Origin: Eledone cirrhosa
Lineage: Eukaryota
Assembly (NCBI GenBank): GCA_964016885.1
Contig: OZ024743.1
Coordinates: 229,214,001 to 229,278,000, forward strand
DNA length: 64,000 nucleotides
Direction of reading: 5' to 3'
A program made the position numbers and the translations under genes. Shown here piece after piece: positions 4,951 through 64,000 of this stretch. Each line of letters opens with the position of its first letter. Within the stretch, counting starts at the first letter, position 1. The notes under the pieces were generated by a model. It saw only the letters and a list, made by a program, of their open reading frames with translations. It was not told the origin of the DNA and did no database searches.

Positions 4951-6937
4951 AGAAAGACCACTAATTAAAGTAGTACTCAATGTAGTTGAAGAGTTGTTAT
5001 ATTTAGGAAAAATATATTTGACTGATCTCCTACGGTTTCTGCTTGTGACTCCACACAGATGAACATATTCTGGTGTGTGTGTATATATATATATATATAT
5101 AATTATATAATTTCATTAAGGTTGAGTTACCTGTGACTTGTATATTTATAGGTGTGAGTCATAACTGTCTGATGACCCTGTTATCTCACAGATTGTATAT
5201 ATATAAGCACCTGATTAAGATGTTTGCTTCCCAACTGTGTGGCTTTGAGTTCATAATCTTCTACCTGTAATATGGCAACCCTGTAATATGAGTTGTTATC
5301 AGGAAGAGCATCAAGTCATAGAAGACCAGTCTCAAAATGTCTCATTACAAACAATGCAAGCATGGAAAAAGTAGACATAAACATGATGATGATGATTCTA
5401 TCTGATGCTCTAACGACTCAGTCAACCCAAATACAATTGAATAAACTATAGACTATAAATATTTTGTTTTTATTTTAAAACATTGATTAACTATTGTGCT
5501 CTTTCATATCTCAAACTTTAAAACATTACTAAAATATGATTAAAATACTATGGAGCACTGATAAACTTTTGTAAATAAGTAAAACATCTGAAACATAACA
5601 ATACCATCAACAACTAAAATACTCAGACAACGAAAAAAAAAAAAAAACATATAGTAAATTTATAAAGGTGAAAGAGAGATTTCAAAAACAATAAAGAATA
5701 GTCGTTGTATATTATTACTTCAGAGAATACAATTAAATAAACATTGCTTTGATTAAGCTATGTTACACAAAACACATTTAACAAATGCAAAAAACAAAAT
5801 CTTTGTAGTCTATTCTATATGCAGTATTGTTTACAGGATGCAATACATTGTTCAGTACAAAAACTAGACATACGATAAAGTTTCTACAAGAAAAAAAAAT
5901 ATAAATATATATATATATATGATAGATAGATTCCAAAAAATTTTAAATAAAAATCAAAAGATTTTCTAACGACAATGAAATCTTTAAACTATCCGTTTCA
6001 ACACCAATATTTAATTATAAATATACATATATTATACATATACAGAGAAAGAGAGAAAGTTGGAGAGGGAGAGAGAGAAAGCAAGAGAGAGAGAGAGAAA
6101 GCTATTGTTACATTTTTGAAGTTATTTTAAAAAAAGCTGCCCTAATCTTATAACAAGATAAAGAGAAAACTCCAAATATCTATGTTCTTCCAGAATGTTT
6201 TGTAATTATTTGAAACTTTAGATCGTATAACCAAGATAATCTTTTTAAGCAATGTAAGAGATAGGAGAAACTATTAAAAAAAGAACTCAGCTTGGATGAA
6301 GCTCTAAAAAGAGTCGACTAGAAATATTCTAATTAAAATTAATTAAATGTCATGAAATTACATCTTTGTCATCACCACCTCCACCACAATAATTTAGTAA
6401 TTTAGTGAGTTCAAAATCATTAGTTTTCAATTGTATGTTTTAGCATCGGCCATATTCAGATATGTTTTCTAGCCACAAAGTAGATAATTCATTTATATTT
6501 GGATGGATAGATGGACACACATATGAACAAGCTGATTCTAAATAAAGACTAGTACGCCATACTATATAGACAGAAGAATGTAGATATTATTTTCATTCAT
6601 GTAAATCCTATGGTCAAGCTTTAAATATTTTCATAGTTGGATTCAACTACCAAAACAAAATAAAATGCCCTCCATGCACTATATAAAGTGTTAATCATTA
6701 AGGAAGACATCCGACTATAGAGAGTATACCAAAATGGAATGTATGAACAAACACAACTATTAAATTATTACTTTGCTTAAAAAAAAATAGATGAAAAGTT
6801 AGAATCAGGAAGAGCATCTGATAATAGAAAATTCTCATCTGACCCATGCCAGCATAGAAAAATAGACATATGTATACAGACACATACACACATTTATATA
6901 TATATATATATAGTGTGTGTGTGTATATATATATATA

Positions 6938-9993: not shown

Positions 9994-10118
9994 TGCTATG
10001 TTGAGACCGAGGAGATCACTAATCACATGAGTACTCAATACATGGGGAGATGTAGAGTGGGTATAGAGATATGTAAAATCCTGACCATGGTGCTAAGCGA
10101 TTTCAGCGAGTTTTGTGT

Positions 10119-22760: not shown

Positions 22761-22798
<38 letters not shown>

Positions 22799-23313
22799 AC
22801 TCAAGGTAAACATTTATGCAATTCAATTCAAGCACTCAACGTACTTATTCCACATAGGAGTGACGGAGTAAATATCGAATAAGGAAAAGCGAAGTAGTTT
22901 CAGATGTTCAAGTCCTTTAATAATAATGCTGTGATATATATTTCAATGGCGACAGTGGCCACACTGTTCCGTGCACCAGTTTCTTTTTGGTTTTGTTGTG
23001 ATGGAAATTCTAACTATGCACCTGCCTAACTACTACCTTTCATACTGTAATTTACCCTTCGTTCTACTGTACGGTACTATCGTTCAGTATGTAGATAATA
23101 TATCTGTAACATTAACACCCCTTTCAAAACTTCTTACTTAAACATCTCCCTACGTAGTATAGTATAGGTGCACATATTTTTTTACTCACTTCAGTCTAGA
23201 TTCTCACTTGTAAATTTTTTTTTATTTTTAATTTTTGATTTCTGATTTTCGATTTTTGATTTTTAGTTTTAATTTCCAACTCTCATTCATAATTTCCACT
23301 GTGAAACCATAAT

Positions 23314-23494
23314 TGTTTCTACTTTTGGCACAAGGCCAGCAATTACCCAGTGTATTACTGGTACTTTATTTTATCGACCCCGTAAGGATGAAAGGCAAAG
23401 TCAACCTCGGCGGGATTTGAACTCAGAATGGCAAGGGCCGTAACTCTATGCGTCAAAGCATGGCGTCCGACCCTCTACCGATACTGCCAATCCA
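23314..23494 (-). mobile_element. Young SINE (Meta/MESC-like core) with 13-bp TSD
   Basis: TSD GTGAAACCATAAT at 23301-23313 and 23495-23507. Confidence 0.92.
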
Positions 23495-23902
23495 GTGAAA
23501 CCATAATACCTAGAATTAAGTATATTTTCTCTTAGAGGTTGATGGTCAATTATACTGTCCATGCTTAATGTGGGGTGGTATTGAGACCTATTGATACTCA
23601 CACTCTCCCAACCCCACTGGCTTTCGGCTGACTGCCACTGACAGGGTGGCTAGCAGTAAGCTATATATTACAGGCCTGAATATGTCATTGTTTGGTTGAG
23701 AGGGGGAACTGCCTAGGCGAATTTCGTTGAACTCTGCGGTAGCTAATGGTCAACTTCCTTCGGACCTGCATCTGTGCAGACCGGTGGGGGTGAATTGGTA
23801 CTCACAAGGGAACGGATGAAGAACCCAGGAGCACACACTTCGTCCGTTCCCATGTCGATTCAATTTGGATTGCCTCGGAAACATAACTTTATTATGTAAC
23901 AA

Positions 23903-23976
23903 GCTATCTGATGATGTCGTGGAACTGGTGCACGGAACAGTGTGGCTACTGTCGCCATTGAAATATATATCACAGC
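23903..23976 (+). ncRNA. Type I hammerhead ribozyme-like motif with long stem II (partly degenerate)
   Basis: GCTAT-CTGATGA(23908-23914)-[45 nt, TGTCG..CGCCA base]-GAAA(23960-23963)-TATATA-TC-ACAGC. Palindromic minimal stem III; stem I pairs 4/5. Confidence 0.6.
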
Positions 23977-23994
23977 ATTATTATTAAAGGACTT

Positions 23995-24167
23995 CAGTAT
24001 CGGTAGAGGGTCGGACGCCATGCTTTGACGCATAGAGTTACGGCCCTTGCCATTCTGAGTTCAAATCCCGCCGAGGTTAACTTTGCCTTTCATCCTTATG
24101 GGGTCGATAAAATAAAGTACCAGTAATACACTGGGTAATTGCTGGCCTTGTGCCAAAAGTAGAAACA
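23995..24167 (+). mobile_element. Young SINE (Meta/MESC-like core) with up to 18-bp TSD
   Basis: ATTATTATTAAAGGACTT at 23977-23994 and 24168-24185; only 2 differences seen from the inverted copy at 23314-23494. Confidence 0.92.
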
Positions 24168-25208
24168 ATTATTATTAAAGGACTTGAACATCTGAAACTA
24201 CTTCGTTTTTCCTTATTCTATATATAGATATATACACACATGCGATAGTCTTCTAAAGTTTTTGCCTTTGAAATTTCACTCAGAAGGCATTGGTCAACCC
24301 AAGGTGATAGTAGAAAATACTTGCCTAAGGTGCTATACAGTGGAAATGAACGTGAAACCTCATGGTTGTGAACTGAACTTCTTAACTATAAGGCCATGCC
24401 ATATAGATATAAATAAAGTTATCTGAGGAGTTTATTGACAATAAGATCGAAAAATGGGGAAGAAAAATGACAATAAATCATAAAAGTACCAAAGAAACTG
24501 GTTTTCTTCTTTCTGAACAGCTAAGAGAAAATCTGAACTTGTATGTTTTCTTGTAGAAACCAGCAGCCAAACAAGTGAACCATGCCATATCATATGAAGA
24601 AAAAGATATTGAATAAGAAACGGTATGATTAATTATCTAGAGGTTCATTTTGTTACAACAGAGAGTAGAGTCAATAATGCATCATCACCATGACAACAGT
24701 TACATTGTAACTACTATAACCAACTGAAATAGAGAATCTATTATTATTATTATTATGGACACCAACAGCACAGATATTTACTTCTCTCTCTCTCTACCTC
24801 TCCCCCAACAATGTTGTCTATACAAGAAGGTAATTGTATTTAGAATAAGAAAAATGACATCTGTAAACAATGAGATGTACAGTTAGTGAATTCAAGACAA
24901 ACTAGAGTTGGTAGGGAGTGGAGGCTATGAGGTAGTGAGGAAAACTAACGAAGACAGACCAGAGAGAAAAGACTGAACAGAGCAATAGAGATGTATGACC
25001 CCCACCACCTACTTTCCAGAAGACAGAAAAACTGAAGGGAAGATATATAAGAAGATAAAATGAAATGAAAAAATGTAAAAAGAAGAGAAAAAGTGAATGT
25101 AAGAAGAGGAAAAGAATAAAAAACAGAAATGTAAAGAAAAAAATAAGAGGAAATGTGAAAGGATTACGATAACAGGAAGTGAGATAATGTAGATGGCATA
25201 GATTACAT

Positions 25209-25466
25209 CAGTGGGTCTCAACCTTTTCATTACTAAGGACCCTTTTAATTTTAATGAATTTGTCTATGGTCCCCTAATAACTTCACTCCTACATGACTAT
25301 GTAGCAAAAATAATAATTGAAACAAAATGAGAAATATTTATATTTAGAGAAGAAGCTATACCTAATAGTGTGTGTATATTGCTTTTCACAAGTTATTTGA
25401 AATGTTGAACTTAGCTTACAAACCCCATCAGTTTTACTTTTACAGATCCCAGGTTGGGAACTGCTG
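25209..25466. mobile_element. hAT (Charlie-type) MITE
   Basis: Imperfect TIRs CAGTGGGTCTCAACCT / AGGTTGGGAACTGCTG; TSD decayed. Confidence 0.7.
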
Positions 25467-25918
25467 TGTTAGAGCACCACAGGGTTAGAAAAGGAGTGTT
25501 GAATATGGCTGATAAACTAAGTAGAGAGTAAAAAGAGAGAAAGAGACGGATAATTATTTTCAAGGCTTTTTCTTTATTGAGCTTGTACTCATCAATATTA
25601 TGCATAAACATGTTCAAAGTGATTATGTCTAAAAAATCTTATTCTTGGTTCTTCACTTATATAAAATGCAAAACAAGGCCACACAGACCAAAAGATTTTT
25701 TTCTAAACAGAATTATTTAGATCCTCTCAGAACAAGCGATTTGGGAACCTACTCAATAATTCCTTTATTTTCTTTTAATTCTGAGTATGTTTAGGCACTA
25801 TCTTGATTTAGTTGATCATATCAACCCCCAAAATTTATTTTCCTCAAGTTGTGTACTCTTTTTGTCGAACTTCTAAGTTATGAGACATAAACAAAGACTC
25901 AAATAGAAGCATGCACAC

Positions 25919-26302
25919 GTTGTCTACAAATGTAAGGTTGTAACACCCACGTCCCGTAGGGCCTACATAGGGTTAACCGCCAATAGTTTCAAGCAGCGTC
26001 TTTACATGCATACCCATTCTTTTCGTTACCCTCTAAGAAGGAATATGACGTCACTTTCAGCTTATATCTGGAGTCTAAAAGACAACCACACCCAATATAA
26101 GTTACACTGGGAGATCCTAGCTGGGTCTAGATCGTATAACGGAAATAAAAGACCATGTAACCTCTGCGCCGCCGAGGCCCTGGAAATACTCTACGCTACA
26201 GACCACATCTTAAACAAAAAATCTGAGGCAATTTCGGCTTGTAAACATAAATTGCACAAAACTTTCCTGTATTACAGCCCCACGTTATACCCTAACGGAT
26301 AG
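25919..26302 (+). pseudogene. GIY-YIG endonuclease domain of a Penelope-like retroelement (5'-truncated, frame open)
   Basis: The frame extends upstream of the listed ORF: VVYKCKVVTPTSRRAYIGLTANSFKQRLYMH..TSLSAYIWSLKD..WEIL..CNLCAAE..LNKKSE..CKH. It has VVY/YIG, catalytic R, E and N, plus CxxC and CxH motifs. Confidence 0.88.
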
Positions 26303-26884
26303 CACGATCTATACGTGGATATTTTACGTCTTGATGTGGGAGCTAAGTATATGTTTTGTTTATTCCTTTACTTATTTGCATAGGTAAGTATATATTACCC
26401 GTATGTTTTGTGAAGGTATGTATACCTTCTCGTACGTATATTTGACTGTTATAGCGTATAATTTTTACATATTCTGGAATTTAGGGTTTGGCTATGTGTA
26501 TACGGGAGTTTTGCGTCCGCGTGAGTGTGCTGGTTCGTACGTATGGTGGGTGTGTGTATATGTGTACTTCTTGTTTTAGTTGACTTACGTCTCCGAACAT
26601 TCGTGTATTTATATGTAGGTATGCGTGTGCGCTTGTTATATACGTATTTATTTACTTATATACGTTTATATAATTATTTATTTATTTGTACACAAGCATA
26701 CACACACACACATATTTATATGTGCGTGGTTTTGTATACCCATGGTAAGGTTTTGCGTATGCTTGTGTATGTACGTATCTGTTTGCATGTATGTATTTAT
26801 TTGTTTCTATTACTTCTGTATTGTATTTATTTACTTTGTTCTTAACTCTGTAGCGGAGATTCATTTGGTCTCCTAGTTGGAATT

Positions 26885-27139
26885 TTAGTCTACGATTTCT
26901 GCTATACCATTTACATGGTTTTGTCTTTGCGTGCTATTGTTCTCCACGCTCCACATATGACTTATTATCTTCGTTTTTTCGTTCATTGCCAGAGAACGTC
27001 TCTATGCACCACCTAAGAGAACATTAGTCTACGACCTCTTTTTACCATAAACGTGGTTTTGTCTTTGCGCGTAATTGTTTTTCACCGCTCCTATTAATGA
27101 CGTATTATTCGTTTTTTCCCGTTCTTTGCCAGCGAACGT
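26885..27139 (+). repeat. Diverged tandem duplication of a ~115-bp unit (26885-26999 and 27024-27139)
   Basis: Both units run TTAGTCTACGA..TACCAT..TGGTTTTGTCTTTGCG..ATGAC.TATTAT..CGTTC.TTGCCAG.GAACGT. Confidence 0.85.
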
Positions 27140-27213
27140 TACCACGAACCAAAGTATCGTCTTCCTGTCTTCCTCCGGTTGCAACGTTTTTTGAAATATC
27201 CAGTTCTGCGTTT

Positions 27214-27289
27214 ACAGATTGACTTTGTTAGTTTCAGAAGATCCCGTTAAGGGTGAAAGCAGCGATTCTTTGCTTAAACTTTAATCTGT
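27214..27289 (+). ncRNA. Type I hammerhead ribozyme with variant core (CAGAAGA) and bulged stem I
   Basis: ACAGATTGA/TTAATCTGT (9 bp), bulge CTTTGTT, AGTTT/AAACT (5 bp); core CAGAAGA 27235-27241; stem II CCC-GTTAA-GGG; GAAA 27255-27258; stem III AGCAG/TTGCT; triplet CUU. Confidence 0.72.
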
Positions 27290-27291
27290 TA

Positions 27292-27297
<6 letters not shown>

Positions 27298-27346
<49 letters not shown>
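27298..27346. repeat. (TA)n microsatellite separating two Penelope-like elements
   Basis: Direct inspection. Confidence 0.95.
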
Positions 27347-27350
<4 letters not shown>

Positions 27351-27468
27351 TTGTTAAACAATATTCTGTCAAAGAATGAGTGTTACAGCAGATTGGAAGC
27401 ACTCAACCAAAAAATAATTTTCAGGAGTTATTAATATTAAAATATAAGTATTAATAAAATAGATGATC

Positions 27469-27533
27469 AATTACATTTTATTATACATATTTCGGATGTA
27501 CGACAGTACGTCCTCATCAGACAAAATATAATT
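27469..27533 (-). ncRNA. Canonical minimal type I hammerhead ribozyme (inverted copy)
   Basis: Reverse complement reads AATTATATTTTGT-CTGATGA-GGACGTAC-TGTC-GTACATCC-GAAA-TATGTA-TA-ATAAAATGTAATT. Confidence 0.88.
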
Positions 27534-28419
27534 ATACATGACATACCCTGAGATGTTAAATGGTTAAGATTTAAACAAGGTAGTGATTAACCCGATAGAA
27601 ATTTTTTACTTATATCCTATTTATGAGAAAATGCGAAAACGTAATAAATTCATTAGAGAATGTGTGAGTAATAAAAAACGTTGCATACTGTAACTGTTTT
27701 ACCCACCCAGTTATACATATGTATATATTTATCCTTAACATCCTTCAATATATTATCTTATTTTATTTTTATCTTCGTCGTTATTATTTACCTCAAACAT
27801 ACTGGCTCATTAATATATACCTATATACATAATAGTTATTTAAATATTTATAACAATAAGTACTTCAAAAGCTTTACATACCTAATATGTTGGTATATTT
27901 GTTAAAGTTTGAATTTAGGTAAATAATCAACAGTATAATATTTCATTCTTTATGTGCCAGCTAAATCCTTTAAATGTTACTCTCAAAATTCAGAAGTTTA
28001 GAAATGATAACACACTTATCGAATTTATATAAATAATATATAAATAACTAGCAAATAATCCTGAAATCTGGAGTCTTCACCCTAATATTATAAATAAAAT
28101 ATTTTCAAATCTAACCGTTTAACTTTCGAAAAAAAAACCCCACACTTTATTTTTGCCTCTTTATAAATCGTTTTCCAGTGGCTATCACTGGCTGTTTTGA
28201 TTCATGAGACGTTTTCCTAGATATATCGTAGTATCATACACTTTAACATTTTAGAACAGTTACAGTATGCAACATTTTTTATTACTCACACATTCTCTAA
28301 TGAATTTATTACGTTTTCGCATTTTCTCATAAATAGGATATAAGTAAAATTTTCTATCGGGTTAATCACTACTTTGTTTAAATCTTAACCGTTTAACATC
28401 TCAGGGTATGTCATGTATC

Positions 28420-28482
28420 ATTATATTTTGTCTGATGAGGACGTACTGTCGTACATCCGAAATATGTATAATAAAATGTAAT
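28420..28482 (+). ncRNA. Canonical minimal type I hammerhead ribozyme
   Basis: Stem I ATTATATTTTGT/ATAAAATGTAAT (12 bp including 2 GU); CTGATGA 28432-28438; stem II GGACGTAC/GTACATCC (7/8 paired) with TGTC loop; GAAA 28459-28462; 2-bp stem III with ATGT loop; AUA triplet, predicted cut after 28470. Confidence 0.9.
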
Positions 28483-28542
28483 TGATCAAAAAAACATCTA
28501 TTTTATTAATACTTATATTTTAATATATATATATATATATAT

Positions 28543-28687
28543 ATGGGCTTCTGCAGTTTTTGTGCATCAAATTCCACTCACAAGGCTTTGGTCAACATGC
28601 TGTTCAATAGAAGACATTTGCTGCAGAGCACAACTGAACTGATGTGGTTGTGAAGCAAACTCCTTAACCACACAGCCACGCCTGCAT
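28543..28687 (-). mobile_element. 5' half of an older SINE whose 3' half lies at about 25770-25913 (split by elements 2 and 3)
   Basis: ATGGGCTTCTGCAGTTT..AACTCCTTAACCACACAGCC matches 18624-18770, while 25790-25895 resembles 18460-18575 of the uninterrupted copy. Confidence 0.6.
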
Positions 28688-61447: not shown

Positions 61448-64000
61448 CGCACAGTGATATGTATACACTCATGCACTCACATATCTTCCAGTTCCTTGAT
61501 AGAAATAATGTCTTGTTAAGTGAGAAATTATTTCCGCAGTCACACGTTTAAGGGCGCTTTCCACCAAAACATTTGGTGTTGGTGAAATTGAGTTAGTGAC
61601 CGGAGAAAATATGCCAGAATATTTATTGTCTTTTGGGTTTAGTTTAGTCTTATTTTATTTCTTTCATTTTCATATTTGTTTTCTTCTTACATTCTACATA
61701 TATATAAAATAAAAATGGCAATTCCAGACGGCATGATGGTTTTAATTTTAATACATATCAAATCTAATTCTGTATTATATGTGTGCGCGTGTGTGTGTAT
61801 TTATATATATATATATATTCGTTTATCTATGTTTCTGCGTGCGTTTTCTCTATATGTGAGACAAGCATTTAACACCTAATTCATAACTAGAGTTATTAAG
61901 CATATAAAAGGGGGTGGTGTAACACATAGCATGTGTGACAGTTGCCAAACGTAGGAGATAATAAATGTCTATGTTGGCTAATAATTTATATAATCCAGTG
62001 CTATGTCTCGAGAAAGAAAAAAAATGAAAATCTCAAACAAAAAAATAAATATATCAAAGAATACAAAAAGACGTTTTATTTTTGTTGCCGTTTTCTTTTT
62101 GCTTTTTCTTTTCCATTTGTCCAAGACGAACAGACAATATACCAAAAGCACAATTTATTACACACAGTGTAGAAGGAAATATTGTAGAATATTGGAAGGA
62201 CTTAGTAGAATCGCTGGGTAGTCAAGGATACCGGTTCATATCTTGCTCCAGGCGCTATGATATGAACCCATAGAGGGGTGTACCGTCACACTTCGAAGGC
62301 CAAATTAAGTTGGACCAACAATTGAAATGTTTTCTCATAAGAACCAATCATTCAGAAAAGCCCTCAAAGGAATAAAGTTAGAAATATTTGTTCTATTTTA
62401 TTACTTTATAAATAATTATATTTCGTAAAATAACTGAGGTTTCGCGAGACAATATGTTTTCTATAATGGTCTCTGATTTAGGAACAAGGCCAATAATTTT
62501 TGCGGGAGGGAAAATTGGAATAAATCGACCCAGTACATTACTGGTGCTTTATTTTATTGACCCACTAAGGATGAACGGCAAAGATAATCTTGACGGGATT
62601 TGAACTCAGAACGCAAAGAGCCGTAACTGTGCTGCTGAGCATGGTGTCCGACACACTACCGACACTGCCCAATAATTTTGCGTTATTTGATTTCAGTTAA
62701 TTCTGATGCGGCCTTTAAGCATAAAATAAGTTCCAGACTTGATAAAATACATACTGGGGACAATATACATAATCGATTCAAACTTTCAAGGTGGTGCGAC
62801 CGCAATCTAATTATTGAATCCAGTAAAAGAATACAATATGTTTTTAAAAATCATATCGACCCCATGGGTATAATAAGCAAAGATGACATCTGGATGGGTG
62901 GGATTTTAAAATCAGCACATAAAACAATGTAACTATATATTGTAAAACTTTATGCCCAACGCACAGCCAACTTTGGCTATCCATCACATCTATCAATTTA
63001 ATAACACTGAAAAATTGCTAGAAACTTTAAACATTACTTGAAGTGTTTAAAAAAAGCAGACACTGTAAGCTTGGGAGTTTTATCATATCTAAGATATGTA
63101 TTTTGTTTTTTAAAAAAACATCACCAAAGGAAAACCTATGTAGTATAATTGTATAAAATATGTTATACATATTTTATAACAATAAATTCTACTTGTTAAA
63201 AAAAAAAAAAAATTTTTTTTTTTCAACACTTGAGTCAAAACACTCAGGAATACATCTGGTCCAGATTAGGCACAATAAAAAGTCTGATTTTCCCATAAAT
63301 AAACAAAGAGTTAAGAAGAAATACACAATAATAATAATAACAGCTAAAAGATTTAGTGACCGAGATTATAACGAGCTTATGTCAGTTTGTAAACTTATCA
63401 ACACCACCTTTTAACAAATACGAATGGAATCTAACGGACCCAAATATTGCGTCTGTTGTAAAGAAAACAAAATAAATAAGTCACCACGGTATACACACAT
63501 AATAAAATGTGTCATTTACTTCATTCACATCCCGACAAGATAGAAAGTACTCAATACATAAGTAGAGCATGTACTTTTACTGAGGGTGCAATGTCTCACT
63601 ATAAGAAATTGTGAGAAAGAGAGAGAGTGTGAAGTATTCACGATTCCACGACCGAGAAAACCTCAAATCTGGGTAGTATTCGATGTAGATTTAGGTGTAT
63701 AGAACATTATGTTGTATATAACTGGGGATCGATAAAATAAAGTACAAGTGGATGAGATGGCTTGCCATATATATATTCCGGCTCTATGAGATATGAATAA
63801 AAACCCGACTATGGTCTACTAGAGTGTTAAGCTTAATTTGTCGCCGGTCCAACACTACCATCTGGCTCTCGAGTGCCATTAGTGGCAATCTTTTGGATCA
63901 GTTCCCTGCTCTGAAGATACCTTTTTCCTCGTCTTTCCCCATCTTTGAAGGGGCTGAAAAGGGCCACAGACACTGTTCTTCCCCCACTTATGCATTTAAA

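Follow-up and report, generated by a model that had tools for sequence, protein, structure and literature searches.

A covarying bulged hairpin of Hydra-clade Penelope-like elements adjoins their insertion ends and is a candidate reverse transcriptase recognition site

Penelope-like insertions in an Eledone cirrhosa locus

We analyzed a 64,000-nucleotide (nt) stretch of Eledone cirrhosa DNA (contig OZ024743.1, positions 229,214,001 to 229,278,000 of the forward strand), called the window below, that contains three insertions related to Penelope-like elements (PLEs), here elements 1, 2 and 3. Elements 1 and 3 are built like the insertion units of endonuclease-containing (EN+) PLEs, with a predicted hammerhead ribozyme near the 3′ end, an inverted 5′-truncated partner, a one-sided tail and (TA)n flanks; each of these two insertions has one short and one long end. 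Element 2 encodes a fragment of a GIY-YIG endonuclease. A preliminary description of the window had noticed that the tails of elements 1 and 3 share the motif AAGCACTCAAC-N15-AGGAGT and had read it as a conserved cis signal, for example for reverse transcriptase (RT) recognition or priming. That interpretation is partly supported. The motif corresponds to both arms of a bulged hairpin that is conserved among Hydra-clade PLEs and whose structure is established in relatives by covariation. What had been overlooked is the bulged hairpin itself, its normal occurrence as a tandem pair in the 5′ untranslated region (UTR) of the next unit, and the fact that copies end just 5′ of it.

The motif lies at 22830-22861 and 27397-27428 (+). 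Its presence in two tails is confirmed, since these are the only 2 matches to AAGCACTCAAC-N15-AGGAGT in the 64-kb window compared with 0 matches in 100 shuffles of it, for a search pattern that was picked after the sequence had been seen. Both copies share the strand of the hammerhead (-) and sit in the tail that extends only the left copy of an insertion with inverted arms and (TA)n flanks. Outside the motif, elements 1 and 3 are unalignable by blastn (best E 0.059), so the signal is indeed common to dissimilar elements; a global alignment of the two from hammerhead to tail is slightly above shuffles (2/500, or 11/500 with the 3′ arm masked). The left arm of element 3 has a hammerhead core upstream of the motif, at 27490-27520; the left arm of element 1 keeps only the 3′ half of its hammerhead, and the whole core is in the right copy (23908-23963).

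Relatives of element 2 and the structure of the hairpin

The GIY-YIG fragment of element 2 has 3926 relatives at E≤0.001, and C126/C129, E132, N146 and C155/H157 are invariant in an alignment of 40 relatives with the window protein. According to the available parts of PMC8557442, CxxC, E, N and CxH positions define the Hydra clade, and with all of them invariant the element 2 endonuclease is of the Hydra type. The protein is 42% identical to one relative (P0014) that we recognize by eye as the Hydra-2_Amil endonuclease. Word-indexed protein searches found nothing for it, Pfam gave no family, and 27 pattern matches in viral contigs yielded no relative. Two sets of loci were assembled. The discovery set has 78 loci on metagenome contigs, reached through a 16-protein alignment (from the best 80 of 555 confirmed matches), and the held-out set has 27 loci (L079-L105) from host contigs binned into bacterial genomes. 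Many contigs in these bacterial assemblies are animal-type DNA rich in Hydra PLEs and (TA)n, probably host contamination.

The hairpin has the consensus RCUC-Y-[variable hairpin]-R-UH-GAGY-RCU, that is, a 4-bp outer stem (RCUC/GAGY) with a 2-nt UH bulge on the 3′ side, a Y-R pair and a variable inner stem, followed by unpaired RCUNU. The pattern RCTCY-N2..25-RTHGAGYRCT, generalized after the window and the consensuses had been seen, has 77 matches in the 78 discovery loci (249 kb), compared with 0-3 in 20 shuffles. Seventy-one of the 77 are on the sense strand. Sixty-three follow a hammerhead core at less than 200 nt and fall into two groups, one at 45-91 nt and the other at 111-143 nt. This range of 45-143 nt bears out the suggested enrichment near hammerheads, and with it a cis signal tied to hammerheads and element ends across unalignable PLE families.

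Pair 5 was left free in the pattern and is C-G in 36, U-A in 26, U.G in 1 and C-A in 0 of the 63 distinct matches. The next two pairs are Watson-Crick in 44/56 and 30/39, with all four pair types represented, compared with means of 17 and 11 under permutation. Hairpin 1 switches between C-G and U-A 4 times on a tree of 38 endonucleases (3-5 in bootstraps), and strong branches force at least 2 of these switches. Two of the 77 discovery matches, L012:375 and L045:2215 (the latter inside an open reading frame, ORF), were set aside before model training. The covariance model built from the discovery loci gives 28 matches in the held-out loci with 95.7% of cells paired, a figure that comes from an alignment fitted to the model; 0/500 shuffles were as high, and slid controls reached 16-52%. 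Anchor-based counts at pair 5 in the held-out loci, made after L098:4319 and L104:893 (without a hammerhead) had been set aside, are U-A 11 and C-G 9 (n=20). Because pairs covary in both discovery and held-out loci, we conclude that the element is a hairpin; the ACTC/GAGT pairing that had been suggested is real, and the proposed covariation check, run here by pair counts in relatives, came out in its favor. The 5′ arms were unalignable by MAFFT. Rfam at E≤1 over the hairpins gave sub-threshold matches only, none of which covers a hairpin except for two microsatellite-driven miRNA/UTR matches overlapping the first hairpin of L092. Additionally, a UA starts 4-9 nt upstream of the hairpin in 61/63 discovery and 18/20 held-out cases, compared with 26-31/63 in control windows and a shuffle maximum of 54.

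The exact 15-nt spacing did not survive this comparison: the loop is 4-23 nt in relatives and is variable also within the element 3 family. In reads of that family (run X8), 27423 is C in 200/228 and the base at 27408 is absent in 109/279, so neither the sixth letter nor the 15-nt spacer is conserved; none of the 40 best-supported of 143 differences falls within the arms themselves. Element 1 has a second ACTCC 8 nt further 5′ (22869-22865), with which the conserved fold has -6.4 kcal/mol, compared with +0.4 kcal/mol for the copy noticed at first. The covariance model too picks the ACTCC at 22869-22865. Since element 1 pairs better through this second copy, the equal 15-nt spacing of the two window motifs is accidental, and loop lengths under the preferred fold are 24 nt in element 1 and 16 nt in element 3. 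Four other identities for the motif were dropped by eye: a fixed-spacing DNA box, given the variable loop and covarying stem; a coding remnant (15 nt being 5 codons), given that third positions are identical and relatives vary freely in length; an antisense 3′ splice site, given that the AG is unconserved and 27423 is C in most family reads; and a SECIS or Pol III box, whose consensus as we know it is unmatched.

The same hairpin can be found in published consensuses. In the available parts of the PMC8557442 supplement, which contains six deposited Hydra consensuses, a version of the motif in which G-C replaces A-T can be recognized by eye: the tail of Hydra-2_Ajap has it, as does that of Hydra-2_Amil, Hydra-1_Ajap has two at its 5′ start, and Hydra-1_Crog has a degenerate one. 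The expectation that PLE consensuses would carry the motif thus holds for four of the six and fails for Hydra-1_Obim and Hydra-1_Amil, in which there is no clear hairpin by eye and which count against the model given below. Three spellings of the 3′ arm have 6 matches in the 584,000-character supplement, 4 at Hydra ends and 2 in other ORFs, a count from which line breaks may hide matches.

Tandem hairpins and the ends of insertions

In relatives, the features are arranged as hammerhead - 45-91 nt - UA - 2-7 nt - hairpin 1 - 33-56 nt (with another UA in it) - hairpin 2 - 15-40 nt - ATG. Units whose 5′ end is present usually have two hairpins: of 57 first hairpins, 22 are followed 55-83 nt on by a strict second one, and the rest are mostly ends. 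We surveyed all hammerhead-like sites with a microsatellite within 200 nt (n=66, a few of which are internal TA runs or non-Hydra cores). The microsatellite begins 31-78 nt after GAAA in 37/66, with no hairpin passed, and 105-146 nt after GAAA in 24/66, where exactly one strict hairpin is passed in 22/24; the remaining 5/66 are elsewhere, and none passed two hairpins.

Of 24 ends for which a same-family reference was available, 18 (from 12 reference families) stop 1-12 nt before a hairpin, and the offset is 1-7 nt in 17 of these 18 after extending shared letters. Three of the 18 stop before hairpin 2. Two further clear hairpin-2 ends stop 5 and 3 nt before the hairpin, two ends at a degenerate hairpin 2 have offsets of 3 nt and 8 or 13 nt, and further hairpin-1 ends in unique DNA stop 5-9 nt before the hairpin. 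The same spacing is visible where no references are needed: tails end 29-41 nt past hairpin 1 in 23/25, and hairpin 2 begins 33-47 nt past hairpin 1 in 23/25. Between 0 and 8 nt are shared at the junctions. Both Hydra insertion ends therefore share one small offset, at a conserved UA, 5′ of one of two hairpins, with short ends before hairpin 1 and long ends before hairpin 2.

Where a locus includes a 5′ copy, the end of hairpin 2 lies 15-40 nt before an in-frame ATG, and the published consensuses, in the parts seen, begin 2 and 6 nt before a hairpin. Both observations would suit 5′ UTR hairpins with a role in transcription start or in control of translation, with copy ends adjoining them only because both cluster at the unit boundary. 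We consider this highly improbable, as it leaves unexplained why long ends stop short of hairpin 2 by the same 2-5 nt and why a UA precedes both hairpins. At L092:1664 and L083:2536, the 5′ end of the copies begins at or ~40 nt before hairpin 1, directly after (TA)n; these 5′ ends may mark an RNA 5′ end or a stop site.

Hammerhead families of another kind occur in the same loci. Those at L079:1138 (-) and at L089:2001 and 3351 (+) have a different stem III and no Hydra hairpin. They too have short (+44) and long (+100) ends, and their tails share another motif in two parts, TATGAAGA...ATTGGATG, so that a tail signal of its own may exist in other PLE clades as well.

The window copies as divergent members of the hairpin family

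The two window copies resemble the hairpins of relatives in fold, position and ends. Their folds have -6.4 (element 1) and -5.5 kcal/mol (element 3), compared with a median of -6.0 for 81 relatives; in element 1 a different fold lies 2.3 kcal/mol below the conserved one. They are on the sense strand, 71 nt (element 1) and 61 nt (element 3) after GAAA within the range of 45-91 nt, and both have UA at -5 within the range of -9..-4. Short ends lie 2-7 nt (element 1) and 5-9 nt (element 3) upstream of hairpin 1, and in a different organism a relative's copy passes into (TA)n at 27434 (a loose read end of run X6). A loose read end of run X4 has AGGAGT near the expected offset, in a 40-nt AT-rich match only and with no hammerhead core upstream. 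Past the hairpin, the tail of element 1 runs for 31-36 nt and that of element 3 for 51 nt, which is beyond the usual 29-41 nt and within the largest hairpin gap of 56 nt. Both copies carry GAGUGCU, and GAGYGCU is found in 6/20 held-out hairpins. Positions that reach such a score at such a hammerhead distance make up only 0.11% and 0.77% of the window.

Several results weigh against membership. The covariance model that scores the window copies was built from relatives only. In 7.5 kb it ranks them first and third, with 7.9 bits (E 1.4) and 6.6 bits (E 2.7), and at E≤10 in 64 kb it leaves them unlisted. Their closing pair is A-U where the consensus has G-C, they have C and G at +2 in place of the U found in 56/59 relatives, and the A-U/G variant is absent from the hammerhead-linked hairpins of the 105 loci. 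[quoted passage not shown] Because model score, closing pair and +2 U all depart from the family, we file the window copies as a divergent A-U variant, assigned mainly by position.

The weak scores and the three departures from the consensus could instead mean that the window motifs are not homologous to the Hydra hairpin and reflect leftover similarity of two distantly related families, or chance. The slight residual similarity of the two 3′ ends with the 3′ arm masked (11/500) would agree with this, as would the TA-rich stem III of both window hammerheads, which is uncommon in Hydra loci. However, the closing-pair change is compensatory, the GAGYGCU form recurs in held-out hairpins, and strand, hammerhead distance, UA and both end offsets fit, at positional frequencies of 0.0011 and 0.0077. 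We hold non-homology to be very unlikely; very probably, the window copies and the Hydra hairpin are homologs. Elements 1 and 3 would then be 5′-truncated or non-autonomous copies of two families with an A-U-closed hairpin variant, which we consider likely.

The three best model matches in the window lie elsewhere, at 63544-63568 (-; 21.7 bits, E 0.014), 10028-10058 (-; 16.9 bits, E 0.14) and 4970-4994 (-; 15.3 bits, E 0.32). They are of the same hairpin type, ending AUUGAGUACU, and the closing pair is A-U in two of them. A search upstream of these three that allowed one mismatch gave no hammerhead core. The hairpin at 10058, with a (CA)n run on one side and a (CT)n run on the other, may be a short remnant of old age.

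A model for two reverse transcription starts

We think it probable that the hairpin acts in RNA as a predicted RT binding site, that copying starts a few bases 5′ of it, and that the presence of two hairpins gives rise to the PLE tail. The template would be a read-through or circular transcript; in the passages seen, PLE transcripts are described as reading through tandem units from the pLTR promoter (PMC6765202) and as possibly circularizing after hammerhead cleavage (PMC4209133). The RT-endonuclease would bind one hairpin and nick a (TA)n target. The ...TA end left by the nick would pair with the UA-rich sequence that precedes the hairpin on its 5′ side, and copying would start there. Use of hairpin 1 would yield a short end and use of hairpin 2 a long end, in which the extra 55-85 nt containing hairpin 1 would constitute the tail. 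Recognition or priming by RT, as first proposed, is thus the best reading of the motif, drawn entirely from the positions of the ends. In the parts of PMC11167929 consulted, the Poseidon RT has two internal starts in vitro that delimit the tail, and the minimal RNA must extend ~55 nt 3′ of the starts. The polarity of the Hydra arrangement agrees with that of Poseidon.

Several points count against this model. Short ends by hairpin 1 would also be expected if hairpin 1 merely marks the 5′ start of the unit, so the weight falls on the 5-7 hairpin-2 ends. Five of the 24 referenced ends are not informative and one more is an internal TA run, and four ends do not fit, namely those of L074 (2 nt after GAAA), L099 (13 nt after GAAA), L053 (8-9 nt past hairpin 1) and L086 (within the hairpin, at an inversion junction). 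In addition, the Poseidon start site is reported in the same passages to be not homologous to the cut DNA (PMC11167929), unlike the UA pairing envisaged here. Lastly, a strand test by wobble pairs (G.U 11 vs A.C 10, partly alignment artefacts) does not tell RNA from DNA folding; in the seed alignment three rows are shifted by one column, giving a few false G.U/A.C cells and leaving the anchor-based counts unaffected.

Wobble counts that do not favor RNA leave room for a hairpin that acts in DNA, where the GIY-YIG endonuclease would recognize it in a single-stranded or extruded intermediate and cut nearby, so that the ends would come from EN-mediated resolution and not from two RT starts. Craig et al. 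ascribe the tail to EN-mediated resolution in the passages available (PMC8557442), and the D. virilis Penelope endonuclease needed the tail for plasmid cleavage, as recounted by Frangieh et al. in the parts consulted (PMC11167929). We nevertheless regard action in DNA as unlikely: a target-primed cDNA of a short-end copy would lack the hairpin, the (TA)n targets do not have it, the conserved UA and the 0-8 nt of shared junction letters fit template-primer pairing, and Poseidon tail ends coincide with RT start sites in those same parts (PMC11167929). A further alternative is that the hairpin directs RNA 3′-end formation, with cleavage or termination a few bases 5′ of it, and that RT starts at the RNA end, as LINEs (long interspersed nuclear elements) do. 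The same fixed offset and two ends would then be explained without internal initiation, but a cut 5′ of the hairpin would strip the template of its only conserved structure, internal initiation has been shown for the related Poseidon PLE (PMC11167929, the parts consulted), and the junctions displayed have neither poly(A) nor a signal resembling one for polyadenylation, which makes this decidedly unlikely.

Returning to the RT-binding model, we offer one extension of it only tentatively and think it may well not hold. Hydra PLEs, which belong to the retroelements nearest to telomerase, might carry a minimal portable template-selection module of <45 nt, a UA alignment site plus a bulged RT-binding hairpin, functionally like the template and boundary hairpin of telomerase RNA. 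Duplication of the module would cause the PLE tail; grafted onto any RNA, it would direct insertion of that RNA at (TA)n, beginning 2-8 nt 5′ of the hairpin. Each of the other PLE clades would then possess a module of its own.

Features of the window

The window hammerheads in Table 1 were recognized from core pattern and stems and are predicted ribozymes. A search of the window at Rfam gathering thresholds gave no match, neither for the hammerheads nor for the hairpins. Element 2 has no hairpin, as is expected for a short end.

Table 1. Positions of PLE features in the 64-kb window
Feature	Position	Strand	Remarks
Element 1 hairpin 1, bulged stem-loop	22831..22869	-	ACUCC 22869-22865, GUUGAGUGCU 22840-22831
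ACTCCT of the preliminary description, element 1	22861-22856	-	second, poorly pairing copy within the loop
Element 1 UA at -5/-4 before hairpin 1	22873..22874	-	predicted template start of short end
Element 1 one-sided tail, short to long end	22800..22876	-	long end 31-36 nt past hairpin, adjoins (TA)n 22762-22793
Element 1 left (inverted) arm	22877..22981	-	5′-truncated within hammerhead, only its 3′ half kept
Element 1 right copy, minimal type-I hammerhead core (CUGAUGA...GAAA)	23908..23963	+	whole core; stem II decayed
Element 1 right copy 3′ end (short end)	24168..24223	+	ends 2-7 nt before hairpin 1 position, into TA-rich sequence
Element 2 C-terminal GIY-YIG endonuclease fragment, Hydra type	25907..26302	+	5′-truncated copy; used to find related loci
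Element 2 decayed hammerhead-like core and short end	27235..27297	+	short end 39 nt after GAAA, into (TA)n; without hairpin
Element 3 one-sided tail	27346..27433	-	long end 51 nt past hairpin, at (TA)n 27298-27345
Element 3 hairpin 1, bulged stem-loop	27398..27428	-	conserved fold is the free-energy minimum, -5.5 kcal/mol
Element 3 UA dinucleotides at -5/-4 and -8/-7 before hairpin 1	27432..27436	-	upstream letters
Element 3 left-arm minimal hammerhead core	27490..27520	-	61 nt before hairpin
Element 3 right arm	28252..28526	+	hammerhead core 28432-28462; short end into (TA)n 28524-28543, 5-9 nt before hairpin 1 position

Element 1 also contains a young repeat like a short interspersed nuclear element (SINE), in two 99% identical inverted copies at 23309-23486 and 23995-24172 with target duplications of 13 nt (23301-23313/23495-23507) and 18 nt (23977-23994/24168-24185). 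At 23675-23700 (+) in element 1 there is a weak CCTGAA...GGTTGAG likeness to the element 3 hairpin (blastn E 0.21), which the model did not detect and which is probably chance. The sequence TGTTTA lies ~7 nt before the long end in both tails (22806-22813 and 27353-27360, -) and also in loose read ends of the element 3 family; it is not general among the relatives looked at. Read depth of the element 3 family over hammerhead and tail (27377-27593) is ~30-100x that beyond 27690 (run X1), an excess that we attribute to extreme 5′ truncation or a short non-autonomous subfamily. None of the sequencing runs listed is an RNA run, a result that does not bear on expression. Different PLE families often adjoin in the same (TA)n tract, as do elements 2 and 3 (27297-27346) and those of L079, L089, L091, L102 and L103.

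Significance and comparison with known systems

The hairpin bears on how PLE RTs choose their RNA and start internally, and on why the tail is optional; in the parts consulted, the only in vitro study located PLE starts and not the signal (PMC11167929). A covarying hairpin that occurs twice, each time 2-8 nt 3′ of an insertion end, is a concrete and mutable candidate for that signal. It is conserved from corals to sea cucumbers and copepods, and its rule predicts both copy ends. The hairpin is also a clade marker for Hydra-type fragments without an ORF and fixes their consensus boundaries.

The window elements are most like the Hydra-clade PLEs with a C-terminal endonuclease, which in the available parts of PMC8557442 share with them the hammerhead near the 3′ end, the (TA)n targets, the inverted 5′-truncated partner and the one-sided tail. 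The element 2 endonuclease is of that type, and the hairpin is present by eye in 4/6 of the deposited consensuses. The tail given there is 30-40 bp for PLEs generally, whereas here it is ~55-85 nt and set by hairpin spacing. The passages of the Hydra section and the supplement parts seen of PMC8557442 describe no hairpin or start signal, and full-text literature searches, which reached sources in part, returned no description of the Hydra hairpin; subscription papers, Repbase/Dfam annotations and figures could hold a mention.

The non-LTR (long terminal repeat) retrozymes, in the passages seen of PMC7229834 and 10.64898/2026.07.22.740005, are likewise short hammerhead-bearing repeats that are probably mobilized by PLEs, and the element 3 family is much deeper over hammerhead and tail than further 5′. 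Elements 1 and 3 differ from them in being inverted pairs with minimal hammerheads and not head-to-tail arrays, and we found no tandem unit among their direct repeats. Those passages describe no mobilization signal for non-LTR retrozymes. The Poseidon PLE of Anolis (Frangieh et al. 2024, PMC11167929, in the parts seen) shares two internal starts that delimit the tail, a required RNA 3′ of them and AT-rich targets. Its starts lie inside the ORF in an AC-rich stem-loop, with no conserved or duplicated binding motif defined and no primer-template homology seen; unlike Poseidon, Hydra loci have a covarying hairpin pair in the 5′ UTR with UA just upstream.

Telomerase has the PLE RTs as its sister group, and for this reason a defined element that positions the template is relevant to the origin of telomerase RNA recognition. 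Stem-loops recognized by RTs include the 3′-tail stem-loop of stringent LINEs and SINEs, hepatitis B epsilon, group II intron domain IVa and the telomerase template-boundary hairpin. No sequence or Rfam match links the Hydra hairpin to these known stem-loops, and the likeness is one of kind: a small structured RNA that likely recruits RT in cis and sets the point at which copying begins or ends. The stem-loop of LINEs is 5′ of the start and becomes copied, whereas the Hydra hairpin would lie 3′ of the start and stay uncopied, and its tandem pair would give two starts. We place the Hydra hairpin as a probable RT-recognition-type stem-loop in a known clade, which makes the origin of the PLE tail directly testable.

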